22,838 nt of DNA from a virus, in IMG/VR virus record IMGVR_UViG_3300031992_000470; one strand, written 5' to 3'. The position numbers and the translations under genes were made by a program. Shown in pieces: positions 6,855 to 22,838 of this stretch (positions within the stretch are counted from its first letter, which is position 1; each line of letters opens with the position of its first letter). A model generated the notes under the pieces. The model saw only the letters and a list, made by a program, of their open reading frames with translations, did no database searches and was not told where the DNA came from.

Positions 6855-7334
6855 TTATAGCCCCCTTAATTCGGCATACGGGTTGTTTGTCTGTCGGCCG
6901 TTCCTATCCGTATGCCAATGCACAAACTTTCTGCCCGTAGAGTCTGCTTGTGTGGGATTCTGAATGCCCAGGTGAATCCACCCGTTGTCGTATAATCCCG
7001 CTTCTCCAACGCATCCAAACAGTTTACAGATCTCCGCCCACTTCTTGGCATAGCTGATAAACTGTGCCTTGGTGAATCCCTTGCCGTTGCCGAGATTCCA
7101 GTCCATGGCCGCCCCGCGAAGGTGATTCGAATTGTAATGTCCGTGAAGCTTCGTGTTTTGAGCCTTCGACCGCCACCACGAGATCACATACATGGGGTGT
7201 TTGAGCCAGGATCTGAATTTCTGAATGCATTTGACAAATGTATATGTCACATCGTACATGTATGCGGTGCTGACGCCCTTGTAGTATTCAGCTTGGCTGA
7301 AGTTCTTTGAAAGATTTCCCGATGCTACTATCAT
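6855..7334 (-). CDS. Endolysin, peptidase M15 family (zinc D-Ala-D-Ala / L-Ala-D-Glu peptidase type)
   Basis: 159 aa with HGHYNSNHLRGAAMDW (the SxHxxGxAxD zinc motif) and a distal WIHLG His. ATGA overlap with the upstream holin. Confidence 0.75.
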   Translation of the reverse strand: MIVASGNLSKNFSQAEYYKGVSTAYMYDVTYTFVKCIQKFRSWLKHPMYVISWWRSKAQNTKLHGHYNSNHLRGAAMDWNLGNGKGFTKAQFISYAKKWAEICKLFGCVGEAGLYDNGWIHLGIQNPTQADSTGRKFVHWHTDRNGRQTNNPYAELRGL

Positions 7335-7600
7335 CCTTCGGCCTCCTCTTCTTCGTCTTCTTCATATGATGCAAGGAGATCGTCGTCCGTCGGCTTTGCC
7401 AGGTCTTCGAGGTATGTCTTGCGGGATACCCCGATGATCGCTGCCAGGAATACGCCGATCGCGGCGATGGTCGCGCCGATCTCGGTATAATACGGGAGTT
7501 CCCATATCTTGCCGACAGTTAAGATTAAGACCTCAAGGGCGGGGATGAGATTCAGAGCCACCCACTTGATCCCGTCATATGTTTCGTTTGATATTCTCAT
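7331..7600 (-). CDS. Holin (Dp-1-family-like, two TM segments, acidic C-terminus)
   Basis: 89 aa. NETYDGIKWVALNLIPALEVLILTVGKIWELPY...TIAAIGVFLAAIIGVS, then a DDDLLASYEEDEEEEAEG tail. Confidence 0.6.
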   Translation of the reverse strand: MRISNETYDGIKWVALNLIPALEVLILTVGKIWELPYYTEIGATIAAIGVFLAAIIGVSRKTYLEDLAKPTDDDLLASYEEDEEEEAEG

Positions 7601-7678
7601 TTTTTGCGCCTCCTATTATTCTGCGATGAATGTGACAATGCCGATTGCGCTTGTCCTTGTTGACATTGCTACACCTCA

Positions 7679-9418
7679 TTAAAAACAAATATAATTTACT
7701 CGCATTACACTAACGGCCGTCCCGACGTATACCGTTATGGTCGTGCCATTGATGCTCGCTCTTAACGGCGGGTTGCCCGCGTCCTGTGTACCGCAGATAA
7801 TAAACGATTTGCCCGATATATTCGCGTCTGTGAAACTAAACGACGTTGCGGCAGTTCCGTTATATACATACGTTCCCGTTATTAGGGCGGTACTGCTCAT
7901 TGCCCCGATGTTCGCGGGGGTAGCCCAATGCAAGATACCCTCTTTTAACCTCGCGGGGGTTATAAGCCGTGCCGTGGTGCTTGTTCCCGCTTGCATTTCG
8001 GCTTGCGTCATGGATGAATAGGTCGAGTTGATCCATCCTACAATCTGCCAATACGAACCGTCGTACATAAGCGCGACAATGCCGCCCGCGTTCCACGAAC
8101 TCGCCGTGCTTGTTCCCGCCGCGGTTGCGCCATACCGTTTTATGGCCTTTGCGCCCGTCCCGTTAACGTTTAGGGTTGGATTTGTTGCCGTGTTGTAATG
8201 GCTGAACTTAACGTATATCAGTACGCCCGCCTCAAGCGTCCCAAGGTCGGGGGATACGTTCACGGTTTTGGCGACAGTTCCGGCTGTGTTGGCGCACTCG
8301 CCATAGCGAACAAGGGACGAACCCCCGCCCCCTGTCTGCCCTGTCGTTTCTCCCTCAACGCCCAACGCCTCGCCAAGTGTGGCGACAAGGTTGCCGAGTT
8401 CCATTTCGTCGAAACGTTCGGCAAGAACGTTATAAACAGTACGGACGATCTTGAAATATCCGCTTGTACCGTAGTCGGGAAATATGACTTCGATCTCGTC
8501 GCACAACTTGCAGTTTAACAGGGGCGCAATGTCTGCATACTCTGCAAAGTCGCTCAAGCGCACAAAATCAACTTTGATGTTCTGCGACGGCATATTAGCG
8601 CGCTTGCTGATCATTGTACTTTCCGCGAGTGCCTCCAACTGTGCCGTGGTCGGTTCGTTTTCGTATTTATCGCTAAAGTCAAGGGGGACGCACTTTTCTA
8701 TGCCGTTATACGGCAAAAGTCCCGAATAAACGGGGTTGCCCTTTACGACCGTTTCCCCGCCGTTTCCGTCGTCGCCTTTCCAATATGGTATTGCCACGGT
8801 GTATGTGTCGGCATAGTCCACGGACTCGTTGTAGTCGATCATATTAACGCCGTATCTAACGGAAAAATCGAGTATTTGGCCGCGTTTCTTGTGGAGTATG
8901 ACGCGAAACCCATTAAACTCATATTCCCCGCCGTAGGCGTCTAAAATCGACCCTCTAACGCCTCCCAATAACTGACGTACCGAACGGGGCACACCGTCGA
9001 ACGCGGCGGCGTATGCGCCCGCTACAAAATCGGCCTCAAAACTAAAAGGCGTTGCGGGTGTCGTATGGGTCAAAGCGTCCAAAGCGTCGGCTAACGTGTT
9101 AACGTCCGTTTGCTCGCATACCGCGCCCGTTAGGCGGTAGGATATATGTACGCAATGAAACGAAACGACGCCGTTTATGGGTTTTTCATAACTCACGATG
9201 TCGAACGGTTGTATGTCCTCGGTGTCGTCGTGAAAAACGCCCACGATCCGGCCGCACTTAATTGCGTCAAAGTTTGCGCCTGTGGTCGGATATGTAAAAT
9301 CAAGTTCGTAAATGCCGTTTCGTTCCTCCACCACCTCGGCGGTTATAGTGTCATATAGGCGGCATATTCCGTTAGTATTAAAGTTTGTTTCTCCTGTTTC
9401 AAATAAAATAGGTATCAT
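7679..9418 (-). CDS. Tail-associated protein Tal (prophage tail endopeptidase-like N-terminus) with a C-terminal receptor-binding-like domain
   Basis: Start at ATG 9418-9416, an ATGA overlap with Dit. MIPILFETGETNFNTNGICRLYD...ELDFTYP is the typical Tal N-terminus. The C-terminus carries a Gly linker (GGGGSS) and a fibre-like motif MTQAEMQAGTSTTARLITPARLKEGI. Confidence 0.7.
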   Translation of the reverse strand: MIPILFETGETNFNTNGICRLYDTITAEVVEERNGIYELDFTYPTTGANFDAIKCGRIVGVFHDDTEDIQPFDIVSYEKPINGVVSFHCVHISYRLTGAVCEQTDVNTLADALDALTHTTPATPFSFEADFVAGAYAAAFDGVPRSVRQLLGGVRGSILDAYGGEYEFNGFRVILHKKRGQILDFSVRYGVNMIDYNESVDYADTYTVAIPYWKGDDGNGGETVVKGNPVYSGLLPYNGIEKCVPLDFSDKYENEPTTAQLEALAESTMISKRANMPSQNIKVDFVRLSDFAEYADIAPLLNCKLCDEIEVIFPDYGTSGYFKIVRTVYNVLAERFDEMELGNLVATLGEALGVEGETTGQTGGGGSSLVRYGECANTAGTVAKTVNVSPDLGTLEAGVLIYVKFSHYNTATNPTLNVNGTGAKAIKRYGATAAGTSTASSWNAGGIVALMYDGSYWQIVGWINSTYSSMTQAEMQAGTSTTARLITPARLKEGILHWATPANIGAMSSTALITGTYVYNGTAATSFSFTDANISGKSFIICGTQDAGNPPLRASINGTTITVYVGTAVSVMRVNYICF

Positions 9419-10665
9419 ACAAACCACCACCTTGGAACTACTTTTAATTGCGTTATCGTGTTATCAAAAGTTATGGTGTTGTTTCCGCTTTTCAGTTCCG
9501 GCAGTTTGCCCCCCATTGATACAAGGCGGTTAAGTGAAACGGGGTTGCCCCCGTCCAACTTGTACGCCTCGCCTATTTCGCAGTTAATATACGTTGGAGT
9601 GCCAAGGGCTGACGTCGTACTGTCCGCGTCTACTTCCTCAAGAAAAGACATTTTAGATTTGGCCAAAACGCACGACGGCCACGTAGTATTTGCAAGTGAG
9701 ATAGTAAACGTGCGCGCGCTTGCGTTATACGCCACGGTGGGCGTTAGGGTCAAAAACTCACTCTGTTCCGTGCCCCCGTTAACGCGAAAATAAAACTCAA
9801 GCGAGAACGCGTCCGTTTTGGTCGCGCTCGTTCCCGCCGTAAAGTCCATTTCTTTAAGGCTGAAGCGCAAAGTGGCCTTTTTGGTGTTTACGGATTTTGT
9901 CATAACCGCAAACGTGCCCCCGCTTACGCGGTCAATATCTATACTTGTTATATTCGACGCAAACGTAAGGTTTAAATATATGTCGCTCCCCTGTAATACG
10001 GTTAAGACGTCCCCGTTGTTAACAAGGTTTGACGAATACGCGGGGGTCGTGTAAGAGGGGTTTGCCCCTCCCCTGTCGGTAAGTTTCACGACGCCCAACG
10101 CCTCATTGGCAAGGGATATATTATACCCGTTAAAACCTATATTCCCGTACCCCCAAACCCTCAACGAGGGATTTGACGGGAACGGCGACGGGTTGGTAAG
10201 TGTTCCCCCGTTTGTTACGTTCTGCGGTAAGCTGCCCGCGACCGTGAACCGTTGGGGCTTGCACTCAAAAGTTATATTGAACTTGCCCGCACGCCCCATA
10301 AGTTCGGGGGATACCTCAAGCCCGCTTTTGTATACCGCGAGGCGGTATTCGTCGGGGTTATAATCGTCGGTCAACTGCTGATAACCTATCTGCGAGCATA
10401 AGGCGTTGCGAAATGCCGCGATCCCCTCCGCAAAATCCGTTTGGGCGTCGCCAAACATTCCCGCAGTATATTCCACGATAATATTATTAAACCGCCCGTT
10501 ATCGCGCGCAAAAGACCCGTTGCGCCCTGGTATGTCGATCATTTCGACATCGCGCTCGGGCGCATTGTATACGGCTTCGCCCGTGATATACACGCCAAAA
10601 TCTTTTGAATTAAACCCGTTGAACGTTAGCCCCTTATATATGTCACCCGTCACGTTTACGCCCAT
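9415..10665 (-). CDS. Distal tail protein Dit (siphovirus tail component) with an internal extension
   Basis: 416 aa. N-terminus LTFNGFNSKDFGVYI...IDIPGRNGSF and C-terminus NCEIGEAYK...LKSGNNTITF...VVPRWWFV are Dit-like. About 150 extra residues lie in the middle. Confidence 0.7.
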   Translation of the reverse strand: MGVNVTGDIYKGLTFNGFNSKDFGVYITGEAVYNAPERDVEMIDIPGRNGSFARDNGRFNNIIVEYTAGMFGDAQTDFAEGIAAFRNALCSQIGYQQLTDDYNPDEYRLAVYKSGLEVSPELMGRAGKFNITFECKPQRFTVAGSLPQNVTNGGTLTNPSPFPSNPSLRVWGYGNIGFNGYNISLANEALGVVKLTDRGGANPSYTTPAYSSNLVNNGDVLTVLQGSDIYLNLTFASNITSIDIDRVSGGTFAVMTKSVNTKKATLRFSLKEMDFTAGTSATKTDAFSLEFYFRVNGGTEQSEFLTLTPTVAYNASARTFTISLANTTWPSCVLAKSKMSFLEEVDADSTTSALGTPTYINCEIGEAYKLDGGNPVSLNRLVSMGGKLPELKSGNNTITFDNTITQLKVVPRWWFV

Positions 10666-13138: not shown

Positions 13139-13696
13139 TTAGGGAGCGAGCACCGGGGCGGTGGGTGCGGTGAACAATGTGGCATATCCATCATCGCCCT
13201 CCTTGAAGACCGCCATGGTTACGCCCGAGGCATTATCCCCGACACATGTCACGGGAAGAGTCTCGGTCGTCGGCTCTTTTGATTCCTCGATGGTGTTGTA
13301 CTCTCTTGTGATTCCGCCAAGGGAACAATTGTAGAGTGCAACTCTGCGGCTCTCGTCATCGCCTTCGACCTGGAAGAAGATCGCGACGGACGGCTTTGTG
13401 GGGTTCTTGACATTGGCAAGTCCGCCGTTTGTCAGAGCCTTGTATCCCAGGAATTGGGTCTTAAAGTCATCGTCGAACATGGCGACCTCGAGATCTCCCT
13501 CAAGTGTTCCGCCGGAATATCCGCTCCAATACACGATGTTGTCGGCATAGAAGTTGTTCTGCTCACTCTGCTCTTCGGGGCTGAATGAAACCGCCCCCTT
13601 CTGATGGTAGGGTGTGCCGAGTGTTACTGTGCCATTGCTTTCCGTGTATGTGCAAACATGGAGCTGCGATATACCAAATTCTACCTTGTTAGCCAT
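13139..13696 (-). CDS. Major tail protein (phi13/TP901-like family)
   Basis: 185 aa. MANKVEFGISQLHV...YADNIVYW... Position and size fit. GGAGGA lies 6 nt upstream. Confidence 0.75.
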   Translation of the reverse strand: MANKVEFGISQLHVCTYTESNGTVTLGTPYHQKGAVSFSPEEQSEQNNFYADNIVYWSGYSGGTLEGDLEVAMFDDDFKTQFLGYKALTNGGLANVKNPTKPSVAIFFQVEGDDESRRVALYNCSLGGITREYNTIEESKEPTTETLPVTCVGDNASGVTMAVFKEGDDGYATLFTAPTAPVLAP

Positions 13697-18160: not shown

Positions 18161-19912
18161 TTATTGATCTCCTTCTCGGTGATTCTGTAACTGAATCCCG
18201 ACATCATTCCACCACTTTTGTCTAACAATAAAGGCATCCAGGAGGGACGCCATTCCGTCGATGTGTGCGTTTGGTCTTATCTTCACGAGCCTCGCCCTTC
18301 CCTTCTCTGTGCTGATCTTCAGCGCGGAATTATAGAAGTGAATCTTGAGGAGGTCATTGTCCCCGATGTGAAGCGCGTGATCCTTGATGTGCGCCTCCAC
18401 CTCCTGGATGGCGGGGTCAAGGTTGAAGCCCTGGAAGACATCATCCATGTGGAATCCGTAGGCGTCCATCTGTTGGACGAGATACGATGCCGAATAGCGG
18501 TCATATCCCACTTTTAAGGGGTATATCTCCCACTTTTCGACCAATTCCCTAAAAAACATAAAAACATCGTTGTAATCGATGATATTCGTCCCCGAAGGGT
18601 ATAGAAGCCCCCGCTCCATGTATAGGTTATACGGGACGCCGTCCATTGCGGTCAGTTCCTCGATTCTCTCACTCGGCAGCCAAAACCGGGCGAGGACATA
18701 GAACTCCGCGTTCTTCTCGATGACTATCACCGCCGAGGTCAAGTCTGTTGTCCTTGAGAGGTCGATTCCCGCGACGCAATAGCACCCACGGAAGTCTTCA
18801 AGTTTCAGTTCCTCGCCCGTGCAACTTTCGATCGCCTGGGCGTCGAGCCATGCGAGGGAACTGTTGGACTTCAGACAACAATATTTGGTGATGAACTCGC
18901 TTTTCTTTGAAAGCGATCCCTCGGCGATCGCGATCTCCTCGAGCATGTACTTCACGGAGACCGACACATTCAAGTTGGGATTGGCCTTCGCGAGTTCGTT
19001 GATGTCGTTCCACTTGCCGACCTCGTCTATCATGTAGAGGAACGGGAGGAGGCGGGTTTCCTTACTGTCTCCCAGGAGGAATCGGGTCGCCCTCTTGACC
19101 ATCTCGTCATAAATGGAATCGTTGATATAGCCCGATGTCGTGCAGCTTAAAAGAATCCCTTCGGGCCGTGCTCCCATTCCGCTCTTCATGACTTCGTATT
19201 GTTTGAGCCCCGCATCGCCTTCCCAGGATGCGATCTCGTCGCAGATGCAGAGGGACGGGTTGAATCCGTCGCTCTTCTTCGCCGAGAAAGCGATCTTCTT
19301 CACGATGCTATTCGTTCCGGGGATGGCGAGGTCGCTCATCCTATGACGGGGAACGAGTCCATCGTCGTGGATTTTCTTGTTATGCATATCCTTCTCCCCG
19401 AGGGTCTCCTTCAAGACCTTGTACTCGGGGTCGAGGGTGGTCATCTGCCAAATATCATTGTAGACCAAATCAGCCTGGTCAAGTTTCGGGGCGATGCAGA
19501 ACACGCGAGACCCGTATTCTTGATTACGGAACTCATACGCACCTATTGAAGAGGCGAGTTTTGTCTTGCCGTTCTTACGGCCAACGACCAGGAGGGTCTC
19601 TCTAAAATATCGATGTCCCTCTTCATCTACGAGGCCGTACATGCACGAAAGCATTGCCTTCTGCCACACCTCCAACTTGATGGGGCTCGGCGCGAGTGCG
19701 CCTTCGGTGTGATAGCAATGCGTTTCTATCCAATCGATGACATCGTTCGCCTTCTTTGCGTCAAAAATGAATCGCTTTTCGCTGATCCCGTTGACGATGT
19801 ACTCGTATATGAGGGATATCCACCGCCCCACGATGAACTTCCCGTTTCTGATACCTTGATAATAGGTATAAATCCAATTATCTCCGGCTTTCCTTTTCCC
19901 TTTTCCCGCCAT
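18161..19912 (-). CDS. terL: Terminase large subunit (Terminase_1 type)
   Basis: 583 aa. Walker A VVGRKNGKT. The N-terminus NWIYTYYQGIRNGKFIVGRW is typical of the family. Confidence 0.9.
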   Translation of the reverse strand: MAGKGKRKAGDNWIYTYYQGIRNGKFIVGRWISLIYEYIVNGISEKRFIFDAKKANDVIDWIETHCYHTEGALAPSPIKLEVWQKAMLSCMYGLVDEEGHRYFRETLLVVGRKNGKTKLASSIGAYEFRNQEYGSRVFCIAPKLDQADLVYNDIWQMTTLDPEYKVLKETLGEKDMHNKKIHDDGLVPRHRMSDLAIPGTNSIVKKIAFSAKKSDGFNPSLCICDEIASWEGDAGLKQYEVMKSGMGARPEGILLSCTTSGYINDSIYDEMVKRATRFLLGDSKETRLLPFLYMIDEVGKWNDINELAKANPNLNVSVSVKYMLEEIAIAEGSLSKKSEFITKYCCLKSNSSLAWLDAQAIESCTGEELKLEDFRGCYCVAGIDLSRTTDLTSAVIVIEKNAEFYVLARFWLPSERIEELTAMDGVPYNLYMERGLLYPSGTNIIDYNDVFMFFRELVEKWEIYPLKVGYDRYSASYLVQQMDAYGFHMDDVFQGFNLDPAIQEVEAHIKDHALHIGDNDLLKIHFYNSALKISTEKGRARLVKIRPNAHIDGMASLLDAFIVRQKWWNDVGIQLQNHREGDQ

Positions 19913-20005
19913 CTCCGTCCAATGTTGCTCTCGTTTTATCTAAATCTTGACCCTTTCACACCTCGGTCTATCCCCACGGGGGTCTCTGATGCCCCTGGGG
20001 GGGCT

Positions 20006-20353
20006 CTATTTTGCGCTTACACGCCCGAACTCGTCGATTTGGTATCGTTGTTCGTTTGCTCTCTTTTCCCTCTTCCTGGCGTTGATTATCGCCCATTTAC
20101 CGCCATGCAAGTCATGCCTTTCCGCATGGCATTCCCGACATAACAACTCGAGGTTGTCGAAGTTCAACGCGATCTCGGGCTTCTCGATGGTGATCGGGTC
20201 TATCTCTATCTTGTGATGGACTATCACGCCGGGCTTGTAGATTCCCTTCTTGAGACAGTTCTCGCAGAGGAAGAGCCGCTTCTTTGCGTATGCATTCCGG
20301 CACTCTTGCCAAGCCTTCGAACTATAGAAATGTTTTGCGAAGTCTTTAGCCAT
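20006..20353 (-). CDS. HNH endonuclease (terminase-associated type)
   Basis: 115 aa. CENC...VHHKIEI...NLELLCRECHAERH. Confidence 0.85.
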   Translation of the reverse strand: MAKDFAKHFYSSKAWQECRNAYAKKRLFLCENCLKKGIYKPGVIVHHKIEIDPITIEKPEIALNFDNLELLCRECHAERHDLHGGKWAIINARKREKRANEQRYQIDEFGRVSAK

Positions 20354-21479
20354 TGATCGCCTCTATCGCTCCGGCGTATGCGCTCCAACTTGCATCCGCC
20401 TGGTATGCGCTTACTAAATTCGCGGGAACATATATATGCCCGCTCCCGTCTTCTATCGGCGTTCCCTCAAGCGCGCCCTCTCCAAGAGTCACTACTTGAT
20501 TTGCTCGAAGTGTAAGGCTTGACAATTCGTTGTTGTAAAAAGCATATGCCCCGATCTCGGTGACATTAAGGTCTGCGGTTTCGATGGAATCCGTCTCTAC
20601 TGTCGGGATCTCCGCACCGCCCGTCAGCTCGTTTCCTACGGGAAGTTTGAACACATTGTTCACCGAATCGTAATAGCCGACCTTGTTGTCGCTCAATCTC
20701 TTAACGGGCACATAGTTATACGCAAGGACATTATTGCTGAAGAACTTGATCTCACCGTATACAGAGCCGATGATGGTGTAGTCGAGTCCGTCGCTGCTAT
20801 TGATGCACCCGCCGATCATGACATTTCGCGCCATGCCCGTGATATTTCCGCTACGGGTTTTCGTTGTTCCGTTAATTGTGGCGGATATTGAATAGTTTGA
20901 TGGGGCGACAAAATTCGGGGCGATCTTGATGTGTGTCCTCGTAAATGCTGACGAGAAATTAAAACTACCACCCAATGACCATATTGAAGTGTTCGGCATT
21001 ACTCCAAAATATGATCCTCCATTTCCCGAGCCATCAAAGCCATACAGAACTTGGGAAATGCTTCTCGTTCCGTCCATCGATGCTTCAATTTCTGCGACGC
21101 AATTACTCTCACGAGGCACATCTGTCAGAAGTACAGTATTGCCATTGAAGTGTACCGATTCCAACTGAACATATTCGCTTGGGAGTTGTCTCGTACTGTG
21201 GTAAAAAGCATAGGGTTTTATCTTGGGAAGTCCGCCCGGCAGACCGCTCAACTCTGTTGCGCTTCCGTCAATGATCCCCTTTAACTCGTCGGCCCATTGC
21301 TTGACATTGACCTCCACGGGAGAGTATGCCTTGCCCGTCGGCGCGGTGTGTGTCCCGTTCTCGGTCACTTGAAGAGGCTCAACTATAATGTCAACATCCC
21401 CTCCGCCTATCGCTGCCTTGAACGGAATAGGCTTATTCAATTCGTCAACTATGAAAGAATATGATGCTACGATTGGCAT
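20346..21479 (-). CDS. BspA-type leucine-rich-repeat protein with a central beta-rich domain of about 200 aa of unknown function
   Basis: Start at ATG 21479-21477, with GAGGAG 8 nt upstream. LRR_5-like segments IKPYAFYHST and VTEIGAYAFYNNELSSLTLRANQVVTLGEGALEGTP...IYVPANLVSAYQADASWS. Central EYVQLESVHFNGN...GYYDSVNNVFKLPVGNELTGG. Confidence 0.6.
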   Translation of the reverse strand: MPIVASYSFIVDELNKPIPFKAAIGGGDVDIIVEPLQVTENGTHTAPTGKAYSPVEVNVKQWADELKGIIDGSATELSGLPGGLPKIKPYAFYHSTRQLPSEYVQLESVHFNGNTVLLTDVPRESNCVAEIEASMDGTRSISQVLYGFDGSGNGGSYFGVMPNTSIWSLGGSFNFSSAFTRTHIKIAPNFVAPSNYSISATINGTTKTRSGNITGMARNVMIGGCINSSDGLDYTIIGSVYGEIKFFSNNVLAYNYVPVKRLSDNKVGYYDSVNNVFKLPVGNELTGGAEIPTVETDSIETADLNVTEIGAYAFYNNELSSLTLRANQVVTLGEGALEGTPIEDGSGHIYVPANLVSAYQADASWSAYAGAIEAING

Positions 21480-21481
21480 GG

Positions 21482-21805
21482 CTATATCTCCTCGTCGACC
21501 AGGTTGGAATCCGTTGCGATCAACATCTTCTCTGATGCCGCTCTCTTTTCGATTCCGTCCTCGACAAATAACCAATTTATCTGCGCCTTGATTCGGCCTT
21601 TCGGGAACTCCAAGGTCTCTTTCTGCGTTAGAAATACGCTTACACTTTGAGCCGTCAATTCGAGATCGGCGTCCTTCTTGGTCAAGATCTCCTCCTCGTT
21701 CGTGGTGGAGAATGTGACCCACACCTCCGTCGCTTGTGTCAGATCAATATCTGCGGTCGTTTCAAATATGAATGTCGGCGTTGTTCCTTTTATCGTCTCT
21801 ATCAT
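21482..21805 (-). CDS. Hypothetical beta-rich (Ig-like?) protein, 107 aa, first gene of the late operon
   Basis: The internal ATG 21805-21803 is preceded by GGAGA. MIETIKGTTPTFIFETTADIDLTQATEVWVTF... Its stop lies 2 nt before the next ATG. Confidence 0.5.
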   Translation of the reverse strand: MIETIKGTTPTFIFETTADIDLTQATEVWVTFSTTNEEEILTKKDADLELTAQSVSVFLTQKETLEFPKGRIKAQINWLFVEDGIEKRAASEKMLIATDSNLVDEEI

Positions 21806-21878: not shown

Positions 21879-21904
21879 AAAAGCCCACGGGATCGCCGTG
21901 GGCT
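21879..21904 (-). terminator. Rho-independent terminator downstream of the ArpU-like gene
   Basis: Minus strand: AGCCCACGG-CGATC-CCGTGGGCT (9-bp stem), followed by TTTAC. Four T in a row if the closing A-T pair is counted. Confidence 0.6.
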
Positions 21905-21998: not shown

Positions 21999-22433
21999 TT
22001 ACCTTTGCGCAAGGGGTAATAATTCCCCGTCGAGTTTTTTCTCCGCGTTCCTCTTCAGCTTCCTCGCCTTGTAGATGTTCGCCTCCGTGATCTCGCCGTA
22101 TATCTCCCGGGCGATCATAGGCCAGGATTCGAACTTATAGAAGCGGAGGGTGATGACCTTCCTCTCCTTCTCGGTGAGGAGTCCCATGAAATCGTCGAGG
22201 ACGATTCTGATGCTCTGCATCTCCGTCTCGATCTCTTCTATCCTGGCATCTATCTCCTCGGCGCGGACGATATAATCAAGCACTTCATTCCCTCCCGCTC
22301 CCGATGTCTGAACGACCGCAGCCTTGTATTCGATGGGCTTCGGGTAGGCGACATTGGCGAACATCTCCCGCCTTCGGTCTTCCAGGGCGGTCTTTTGCTT
22401 GTGTAATTGTAAAAGGCGGAATGTGTACCACAT
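21999..22433 (-). CDS. ArpU/RinA-like late transcriptional regulator (sigma-70 region-4-like)
   Basis: 144 aa. LTEKERKVITLRFYKFESWPMIAREIYGEITEANIYKARKLKRNAEKKL. It is the last early gene before the packaging module. Confidence 0.7.
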   Translation of the reverse strand: MWYTFRLLQLHKQKTALEDRRREMFANVAYPKPIEYKAAVVQTSGAGGNEVLDYIVRAEEIDARIEEIETEMQSIRIVLDDFMGLLTEKERKVITLRFYKFESWPMIAREIYGEITEANIYKARKLKRNAEKKLDGELLPLAQR

Positions 22434-22657: not shown

Positions 22658-22838
22658 GCTTTGCCATCCTCCTCGTCCTTGTAGAGTTCGAAGATTCTGA
22701 ATACCTTCATCCACTCCTCGAGTTTCATCGTTACGAGCCAGGGACAGTTGTTCTTGCGGTGGAATACGGCGGGAAGATCGTTCTCCCCCGCGTCCCTGGT
22801 CGCCTGGGCGATCGCGTCGTATAGGTTGAGATGCTCGA
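22654..22838 (-). CDS. Holliday-junction resolvase-like nuclease, C-terminal part. It continues the ORF at 287 -> 1; 22712-22838 duplicates 1-127.
   Basis: The frame was verified across the junction (…GAG TG|G ATG AAG…). TGA at 22656-22654. Confidence 0.75.
   Translation of the reverse strand, partial: EHLNLYDAIAQATRDAGENDLPAVFHRKNNCPWLVTMKLEEWMKVFRIFELYKDEEDGKA
22712..22838. repeat. Terminal direct repeat, copy 2
   Basis: Identical to 1-127. Confidence 0.95.

Follow-up and report, generated by a model that had tools for sequence, protein, structure and literature searches.

A gene pair at the start of the late operon of virus record IMGVR_UViG_3300031992_000470 as a probable receptor-binding cassette of an Ig-like anchor and a short LRR_5/LamG fiber

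The IMG/VR virus record IMGVR_UViG_3300031992_000470 was analyzed over its whole length of 22,838 nt (hereafter, the window). The question raised by the locus concerns two genes at 20346–21805, which encode proteins of 107 and 377 amino acids (aa) and are situated between a putative late regulator gene and the genes of an HNH endonuclease and the large terminase (TerL): what is the function of such a pair outside the tail module? A prediction made earlier from the sequence (here, the original prediction) had placed the pair in the slot of the small terminase and suggested, among other roles, an adhesin or auxiliary receptor-binding protein. The pair is best read as a receptor-binding module now found, after relocation, at the beginning of the late operon. 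It probably constitutes a tail-displayed receptor-binding cassette, in which an immunoglobulin (Ig)-like anchor is combined with a short fiber carrying a lectin head of the LRR_5/LamG type (LRR, leucine-rich repeat).

When the window ends were compared, positions 1–127 were found to be an exact direct repeat (127 nt) of positions 22712–22838, which identifies the window as a complete phage genome of 22,711 bp from a circular assembly. Every convincing gene is carried by the minus strand, to which all gene, domain, spacer, and hairpin coordinates of the window given below refer. The 107-aa gene (21482–21805) and the 377-aa gene (20346–21479) are real open reading frames (ORFs), each preceded by its own Shine-Dalgarno sequence (GGAG and, for the 377-aa gene, GAGGAG), and the junctions checked in the sequence agreed with the two ORFs as originally predicted. 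The stop codon TAG of the 107-aa gene (21484–21482) is followed by CC and then by the ATG of the 377-aa gene at 21479, which leaves the genes 2 nt apart. The overlap of 8 nt claimed earlier between the 377-aa stop and the HNH start was also seen, the common letters being ATGGCTAA. A terminator-like hairpin (21882..21904; nine pairs, seven of them G-C, then TTTT) is located between the regulator and the 107-aa genes. Since it separates the regulator gene from the pair, the pair opens the late transcription unit, and the order of transcription is the 144-aa regulator, the 107-aa gene, the 377-aa gene, HNH, TerL, and then the structural genes.

Upstream of its ATG, the 377-aa gene has a reading frame free of stop codons for 88 codons (21480–21743), which overlaps the 107-aa gene in the −1 frame. 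A programmed −1 frameshift fusing the two ORFs was considered and rejected, the openness being attributed to chance: it is not conserved (the upstream open stretch is only 1–14 codons long in five relatives, a 93%-identical one included), there is no slippery heptamer, and the 377-aa gene has its own GAGGAG.

The 107-aa protein had been described as beta-rich, and the AlphaFold2 (AF2) model bears this out: nine strands form an Ig-like beta-sandwich (predicted local distance difference test [pLDDT] 89, predicted template modeling score [pTM] 0.79). The structural matches with the highest template modeling (TM) scores in Foldseek were siphophage baseplate anchor domains of the BppU N-terminal type, namely TP901-1 BppU (4v96), 80alpha (6v8i, with chains 6v8i_AJ and 6v8i_AK among the best fold matches), and NF5 (9m8o), with TM scores on the query (TMq) of 0.62–0.69. 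These superpositions covered 108–119 columns with probability 1.00 and E-values of ~2e-3 to 8e-3, and the baseplate of mycobacteriophage Douge (8zdo) was matched at TMq 0.51. The BppU-Nt fold is the conserved anchor by which receptor-binding proteins (RBPs) and fibers are held on rings of Dit or the major tail protein (MTP) (PMC7291167, PMC7048315). Judging from the model, the 107-aa protein is proposed to be a stand-alone BppU-N-like Ig domain that would serve as the virion anchor of the fiber. Its sole profile match was phrog_15594 of PHROG (function unknown), and tblastn against GenBank phages gave no match. The profile built from it reached 2,939 cluster representatives at E ≤ 1e-3, nearly all of them stand-alone proteins of 100–110 aa.

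For the 377-aa protein, ~40 full-length homologues were collected, all from metagenomes, and their alignment was divided into four modules: a variable N-terminus with one to four repeats of the type xTENGTYDVTxYAxAxVNV, a conserved linker ending in KIKPYAFY, a center of ~190 aa, and a highly conserved C-terminus. In the window protein, residues 1–59 (21303..21479; low pLDDT) comprise a lineage-specific N-terminal anchor and one shaft repeat (VTENGTY...VNV). Residues 60–99 (21183..21302) contain a linker helix and an LRR-like unit, LPGGLPKIKPYAFY, which is recognized by motif only; this part is 55–92% conserved in most homologues. The AF2 model is confident over residues 100–377. Residues ~100–290 (20610..21182; pLDDT mostly >85) were modeled as a LamG/ConA-like lectin jelly-roll, and residues 291–377 with the stop codon (20346..20609) contain BspA-type LRR_5 units, matched weakly by Pfam LRR_5, and a C-terminal cap.

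Residues 100–290 had no match in Pfam or PHROG. In Foldseek searches, the central domain was matched to agrin G2/G3, laminin LG5, PTX3 pentraxin, and CBM40 in the PDB (probability 0.95–1.0), and to LamG/ConA-like phage proteins in BFVD (E-values down to 2e-11). The original prediction had described both ends of the protein as LRR-like. The C-terminal LRR proved real: Pfam LRR_5 (PF13306) matched 33 of the 39 members of the 377 family at E ≤ 0.01 (best, 5.2e-11), and the family profile weakly matched two LRR_5 proteins of known structure, 4fd0 and 4fdw, in their C-terminal caps. On the window protein itself, the match was at E = 1.2e-4 and 22.4 bits, the gathering cut-off being 27.7. The N-terminal KIKPYAFY, on the other hand, is a motif resemblance only. 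The LRR_5 profile covers residues 305–338, one further unit at ~85–93 is seen at motif level, and no tandem LRR array was found in the protein, as the units are interrupted by the 190-aa jelly-roll.

Outside the family, tblastn of the 377-aa protein against GenBank phages returned a single partial match. A 1673-aa protein of the Heliusvirales gut phage NatCom_3357 (L001, PV036416.1, 3255–8276) shares 49% identity at its C-terminus with the last 77 residues; its gene belongs to the tail module, downstream of those for Dit and a Tal-sized protein. Because that protein ends in the same LRR_5 cap, such caps seem to recur as a distal module in gut-phage fibers. The search with the 377 family returned nothing from GTDB genomes and only the known 93% relative from IMG/VR, and a literature search for BspA-type LRR domains in phage RBPs found nothing relevant among the papers available.

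An AT-rich center with unusual codons had been taken as a sign of an inserted module. GC does dip to 0.43–0.45 at 20850–21224, which supports the AT-rich center weakly, and comparable dips occur elsewhere in the genome. The codon signal, however, spans the whole gene. At third codon positions, its GC content (GC3) of 0.53 is lower than that of any other gene in the genome (mean 0.645, sd 0.062) and is similar in the N-terminal, central, and C-terminal parts (0.556, 0.534, and 0.506), so composition does not mark the center as a separate insert, and a compositionally distinct central insert was rejected. The modular nature of the center was instead retained at the family level: in second-tier homologues, the center is only 18–26% identical despite flanks at 55–74%. 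Low central identity beside kept flanks indicates that the lectin domain is the exchangeable or hypervariable part, and residues ~100–290 are regarded, with the predicted fold, as a variable putative receptor-binding domain.

The surroundings of the homologues were inspected among relatives. Homologues are not always found beside terminase genes, a possibility raised earlier; homologues of the two genes are neighbors within tail modules, where they usually adjoin lysis genes (L002, L003, and L007). The distal tail module of L002 and L003 carries, immediately ahead of the holin or endolysin gene, a small gene of 103 or 109 aa with a large one of 371 or 427 aa; the small genes are weakly similar to the 107-aa protein, whose profile reaches that of L002 at 5e-15. 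The 377 homologue of L007 is situated between the Tal/amidase genes and baseplate genes, and that of L004 between portal and lysis genes. The 93% relative L006 has an arrangement identical to that of the window. Matches in metagenome-assembled genomes came from Clostridia (Shuttleworthella, Ruminococcus, and an uncultured Clostridia bacterium).

The close relative L022 has the order 144 aa, 107 aa (93% identical), a 339-aa protein (P0040), and HNH. Residues 1–59 of the 339-aa protein are 84% identical to those of the window 377-aa protein, and the remainder is unrelated. The locus has stayed in place while its receptor-binding allele was exchanged, and a kept N-terminus with a new distal domain is what is usually seen in host-range genes. 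As expected of an RBP or tail fiber, the 377-aa protein thus combines a kept N-terminal, putative attachment part with an exchangeable distal part.

Of 55 loci, 38 have fiber-like genes downstream of the 107-family member, and 11 encode LRR_5-capped proteins within 7 kb downstream of it. Like BppU_N-type proteins, the family is found next to fiber or RBP genes of the tail module; in the window, the two genes are adjacent and yet outside the tail module. A typical 107-led cassette continues with a ~90-aa protein ending NYGLITWNGSxITVS, then a protein starting MAQNVVINGVTY, and then variable proteins, often LRR_5-capped (examples: L050 1790–3416; L045 2926–3933; L037 9995–11917; L033 7531–9130). 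When positions were compared among phages with homologous TerL, portal, and Tal (L008–L069), at least five were found: upstream of HNH, at the TerL-portal junction, downstream of portal, downstream of Tal, and on either side of holin. From these positions, the 107-led cassette appears to move as a unit within the late operon.

In the window, the genes of Dit (416 aa, 9415–10665) and Tal (583 aa, 7679–9430), which are presumed to form the docking platform together, are followed by those of the holin (7331–7600) and the endolysin (6855–7334). The gap between Tal and holin is 78 nt (7601–7678) and contains no fiber gene. As Tal is directly followed by holin, the pair is the only dedicated fiber candidate in the complete genome. 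The pair is translated from the opening portion of the late transcript (terminator, 107, 377, HNH, cos, TerL ... Tal, holin, lysin). If it is a receptor-binding cassette, the 107-aa protein would assemble on a ring of Dit or the tail tube, and the 377-aa protein, the fiber, would be docked to the virion by its first ~59 residues. A single beta-repeat would form a very short shaft, and the head would be a small BspA-type LRR_5 scaffold carrying the LamG/ConA-like lectin domain, by which a cell-wall polysaccharide of a Clostridia host may be bound.

Several points weigh against this interpretation. The link of the 107-aa protein to BppU-N is structural only, with Foldseek E-values of only ~2e-3, and Ig-like folds are common. 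Pfam BppU_N did not match the protein at E ≤ 0.1, a search of the PDB with the 107-family profile gave spurious matches only and no BppU, and hhalign of the 107-aa protein against T5 p132 gave no signal (probability 0.1%). The coiled-coil of BppU and its RBP-holding C-terminal domain are both absent from the protein. Presence in the virion and binding of host polysaccharide are inferred from predicted fold and synteny, as are the docking partner, the oligomeric state, and the sugar ligand. Cassettes are also found at spots unusual for essential tail genes (between TerL and portal, and after holin), which fits a dispensable accessory, and the 416-aa Dit and the Tal extension could carry the primary receptor-binding function.

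A mobile cassette together with an enlarged Dit and Tal leaves room for a merely accessory role. The pair would then encode a dispensable, moron-like adhesin exposed at the tail tube, neck, or head of the virion, with essential recognition performed by Dit and Tal, and would raise adherence to the host capsule, to other cells, or to mucus glycans. This is considered rather unlikely. In its favor, in addition to the positions of the cassette, at least five in late operons of related phages with TerL-portal and post-holin included, the lowest GC3 of the genome suggests a recent acquisition of the 377-aa gene. Dit is enlarged (416 aa), and Tal is extended by ~230 aa at its C-terminus (phrog_33513); either could carry additional binding modules. 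In 80alpha, BppU-N-like rings hold accessory fibers on the tail tube (PMC7048315, PMC7291167). Against the accessory role, no other dedicated fiber or RBP gene is found in the complete 22.7-kb genome, and the swap of a distal domain between close relatives is typical of a host-range determinant.

The receptor-binding cassette may be set in a wider frame, which is put forward tentatively. The 107 family would define a widespread, portable plug-in adhesin cassette in small HK97-like cos phages whose hosts are Clostridia of gut and rumen, consisting of a universal Ig-like anchor and exchangeable fiber genes and hopping between junctions of the late operon; the minimal two-gene version of the window, with a hitherto uncharacterized LRR_5-LamG lectin head and at the far right end of the chromosome beside cos, would be the sole dedicated host-recognition device of a phage that has no recognizable small terminase either. 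The original prediction had held that homologues proving to be ordinary tail fibers simply transposed to this locus would speak against it. The synteny essentially shows this, with the nuance that it is the whole anchor-plus-fiber cassette that appears mobile among late-operon positions.

Known systems were compared with the pair. One is T5, where p132 is a stand-alone protein of 140 aa with the BppU-Nt fold (PMC7291167) and its gene is directly upstream of ltf (AY587007). As is proposed for the window, a small stand-alone BppU-N protein is encoded 5' of a fiber gene, and this collar protein anchors accessory sugar-binding fibers, the L-shaped pb1 (ltf), to the tail (PMC7291167). Unlike in the window, p132 has no detectable sequence similarity to the 107-aa protein (the hhalign result above, 0.1%), the T5 fiber has 1396 aa and a C-terminal intramolecular chaperone, compared with 377 aa and an LRR_5/LamG head, and the T5 genes are situated within the tail module, whereas the window pair is at the start of the late operon beside HNH and cos.

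In the Lactococcus phage TP901-1 (BppU/BppL) and in Tuc2009 (BppU/BppA/BppL), an Ig-like N-domain likewise docks on Dit and holds saccharide-binding RBPs, and the distal parts are modular. BppU, however, is 299 aa long and also comprises a coiled-coil and a C-terminal domain that holds the RBP, whereas the 107-aa protein corresponds to the N-domain alone; the fold of the RBP head also differs, and the 107-aa protein has no Pfam BppU_N match. In the Staphylococcus phage 80alpha, FibL (gp62) and FibU (gp68) carry BppU-like N-terminal Ig domains (PMC7048315), rings of which bear the lateral fibers. There the Ig domain is fused to the fiber, in contrast to the separate polypeptide of the window, and the fibers are coiled-coil and collagen-like instead of LRR/LamG. 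The BspA-type LRR_5 surface proteins of gut bacteria (Bacteroides 4fd0 and 4fdw) share LRR_5 units and the characteristic C-terminal cap with the 377-aa protein, but have many LRR units compared with ~2–3 units interrupted by LamG, and the 377-aa protein is phage-encoded with a fiber-type N-terminus. Anchors of the BppU-N fold and lectin-type RBP heads are established, and it is the composition of the head and the genomic position that are unusual, together with the seeming portability of the cassette.

The receptor-binding reading provides a testable function for a large family of small "hypothetical" phage proteins (phrog_15594, ~2,900 cluster representatives) and for an uncharacterized LRR_5/LamG fiber head in phages probably infecting Clostridia, the RBPs of which are largely unknown. 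If a universal anchor and a portable cassette are real, they would make it easier to predict or re-engineer which hosts gut and rumen phages infect. Position alone would be insufficient for locating host-recognition genes. The general understanding of phage biology is unchanged by the pair.

A late factor acting outside the virion, in superinfection exclusion, defense, or as a lysis accessory, is very unlikely. BspA-type LRR proteins are typically bacterial surface proteins, which counts for such a factor, and the cassette adjoins holin and lysin genes in several relatives. Against it, neither protein had a PADLOC match at E ≤ 0.1, and no N-terminal hydrophobic signal or membrane segment was evident when the sequences were read by eye. 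Fold matches were baseplate anchors and phage lectin domains, and fiber-type repeats occur within the cassettes. Among the roles offered by the original prediction, the superinfection or defense option thus found no counterpart in PADLOC, and the adhesin or auxiliary receptor-binding option fits the BppU-N-like anchor fold, the LamG and LRR_5 head, and the homologous pairs in tail modules.

The placement of the pair in the small-terminase slot did not hold. Cos phages of the HK97 and phi12/phiSLT types canonically carry the small-terminase gene between HNH and TerL. In the window, the pair precedes HNH, and the corresponding slot is the HNH-TerL spacer (19913..20005), which has 93 bp with C/G-rich palindromes and no room for a small-terminase gene. 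The contigs L006 and L022, obtained from different samples with different assemblers, end at the identical nucleotide 40 nt past the HNH stop (window 19966|19965; L006 11475–11513; L022 4777–4816), and the more distant relatives L015 and L016 end 48–51 nt after HNH. The coinciding contig ends point to a physical genome end in the spacer, and cos is probably at 19966|19965. With cos there, the pair would be at the right end of the chromosome in packaged DNA.

That the 107-aa protein or the pair replaces the missing small terminase is scarcely credible: although no small terminase was recognizable in the complete genome by Pfam, PHROG, or NCBIfam, and the pair and several related cassettes adjoin HNH, TerL, or portal genes, the model of the 107-aa protein is all-beta and Ig-like with neither a helix-turn-helix nor a helical oligomerization core, no small-terminase profile of these collections matched it, the family is mostly found in tail and lysis contexts far from the terminase, and L033 has a cassette plus a separate helical ORF of 106 aa between HNH and TerL (9578–9898). 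The 107-aa protein was accordingly rejected as a small terminase on fold, family context, and absent profile matches. The 106-aa ORF of L033 had no Pfam match and no homologue in the window.

The genes flanking the pair were assigned as follows. Directly upstream, the 144-aa protein (21999..22433) is a sigma-70 region-4-like or ArpU-type putative late regulator with weak matches to Sigma70_r4, DUF722, phrog_36 ("transcriptional regulator"), and NCBIfam sigma factors. Downstream, the HNH endonuclease (115 aa, 20006..20353) was matched by Pfam HNH at 1.1e-9 and by phrog_119, and TerL (583 aa, 18161..19912) by TerL_ATPase, TerL_nuclease, and phrog_9 (2e-126). TerL is followed by portal, protease, capsid, connectors, major tail protein (13139–13696), tape measure, Dit, Tal, holin, and endolysin. 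No integrase was recognized in the complete genome.

The early genes include Gam-like, Erf, DnaD-like, SSB, and PAPS reductase genes. In the spacer between the SSB and DnaD-like genes (2376–2482), two short tandem arrays adjoin each other, the first CTAAT-rich with 15-nt spacing (three copies) and the second with an 11-nt unit, TGTGCTCCGxT (three copies); they are a candidate replication origin or iteron region. The PAPS-reductase-family gene (552–1361) is also present in the relative L006, where it adjoins DNA methylase genes and may have a function in DNA modification.

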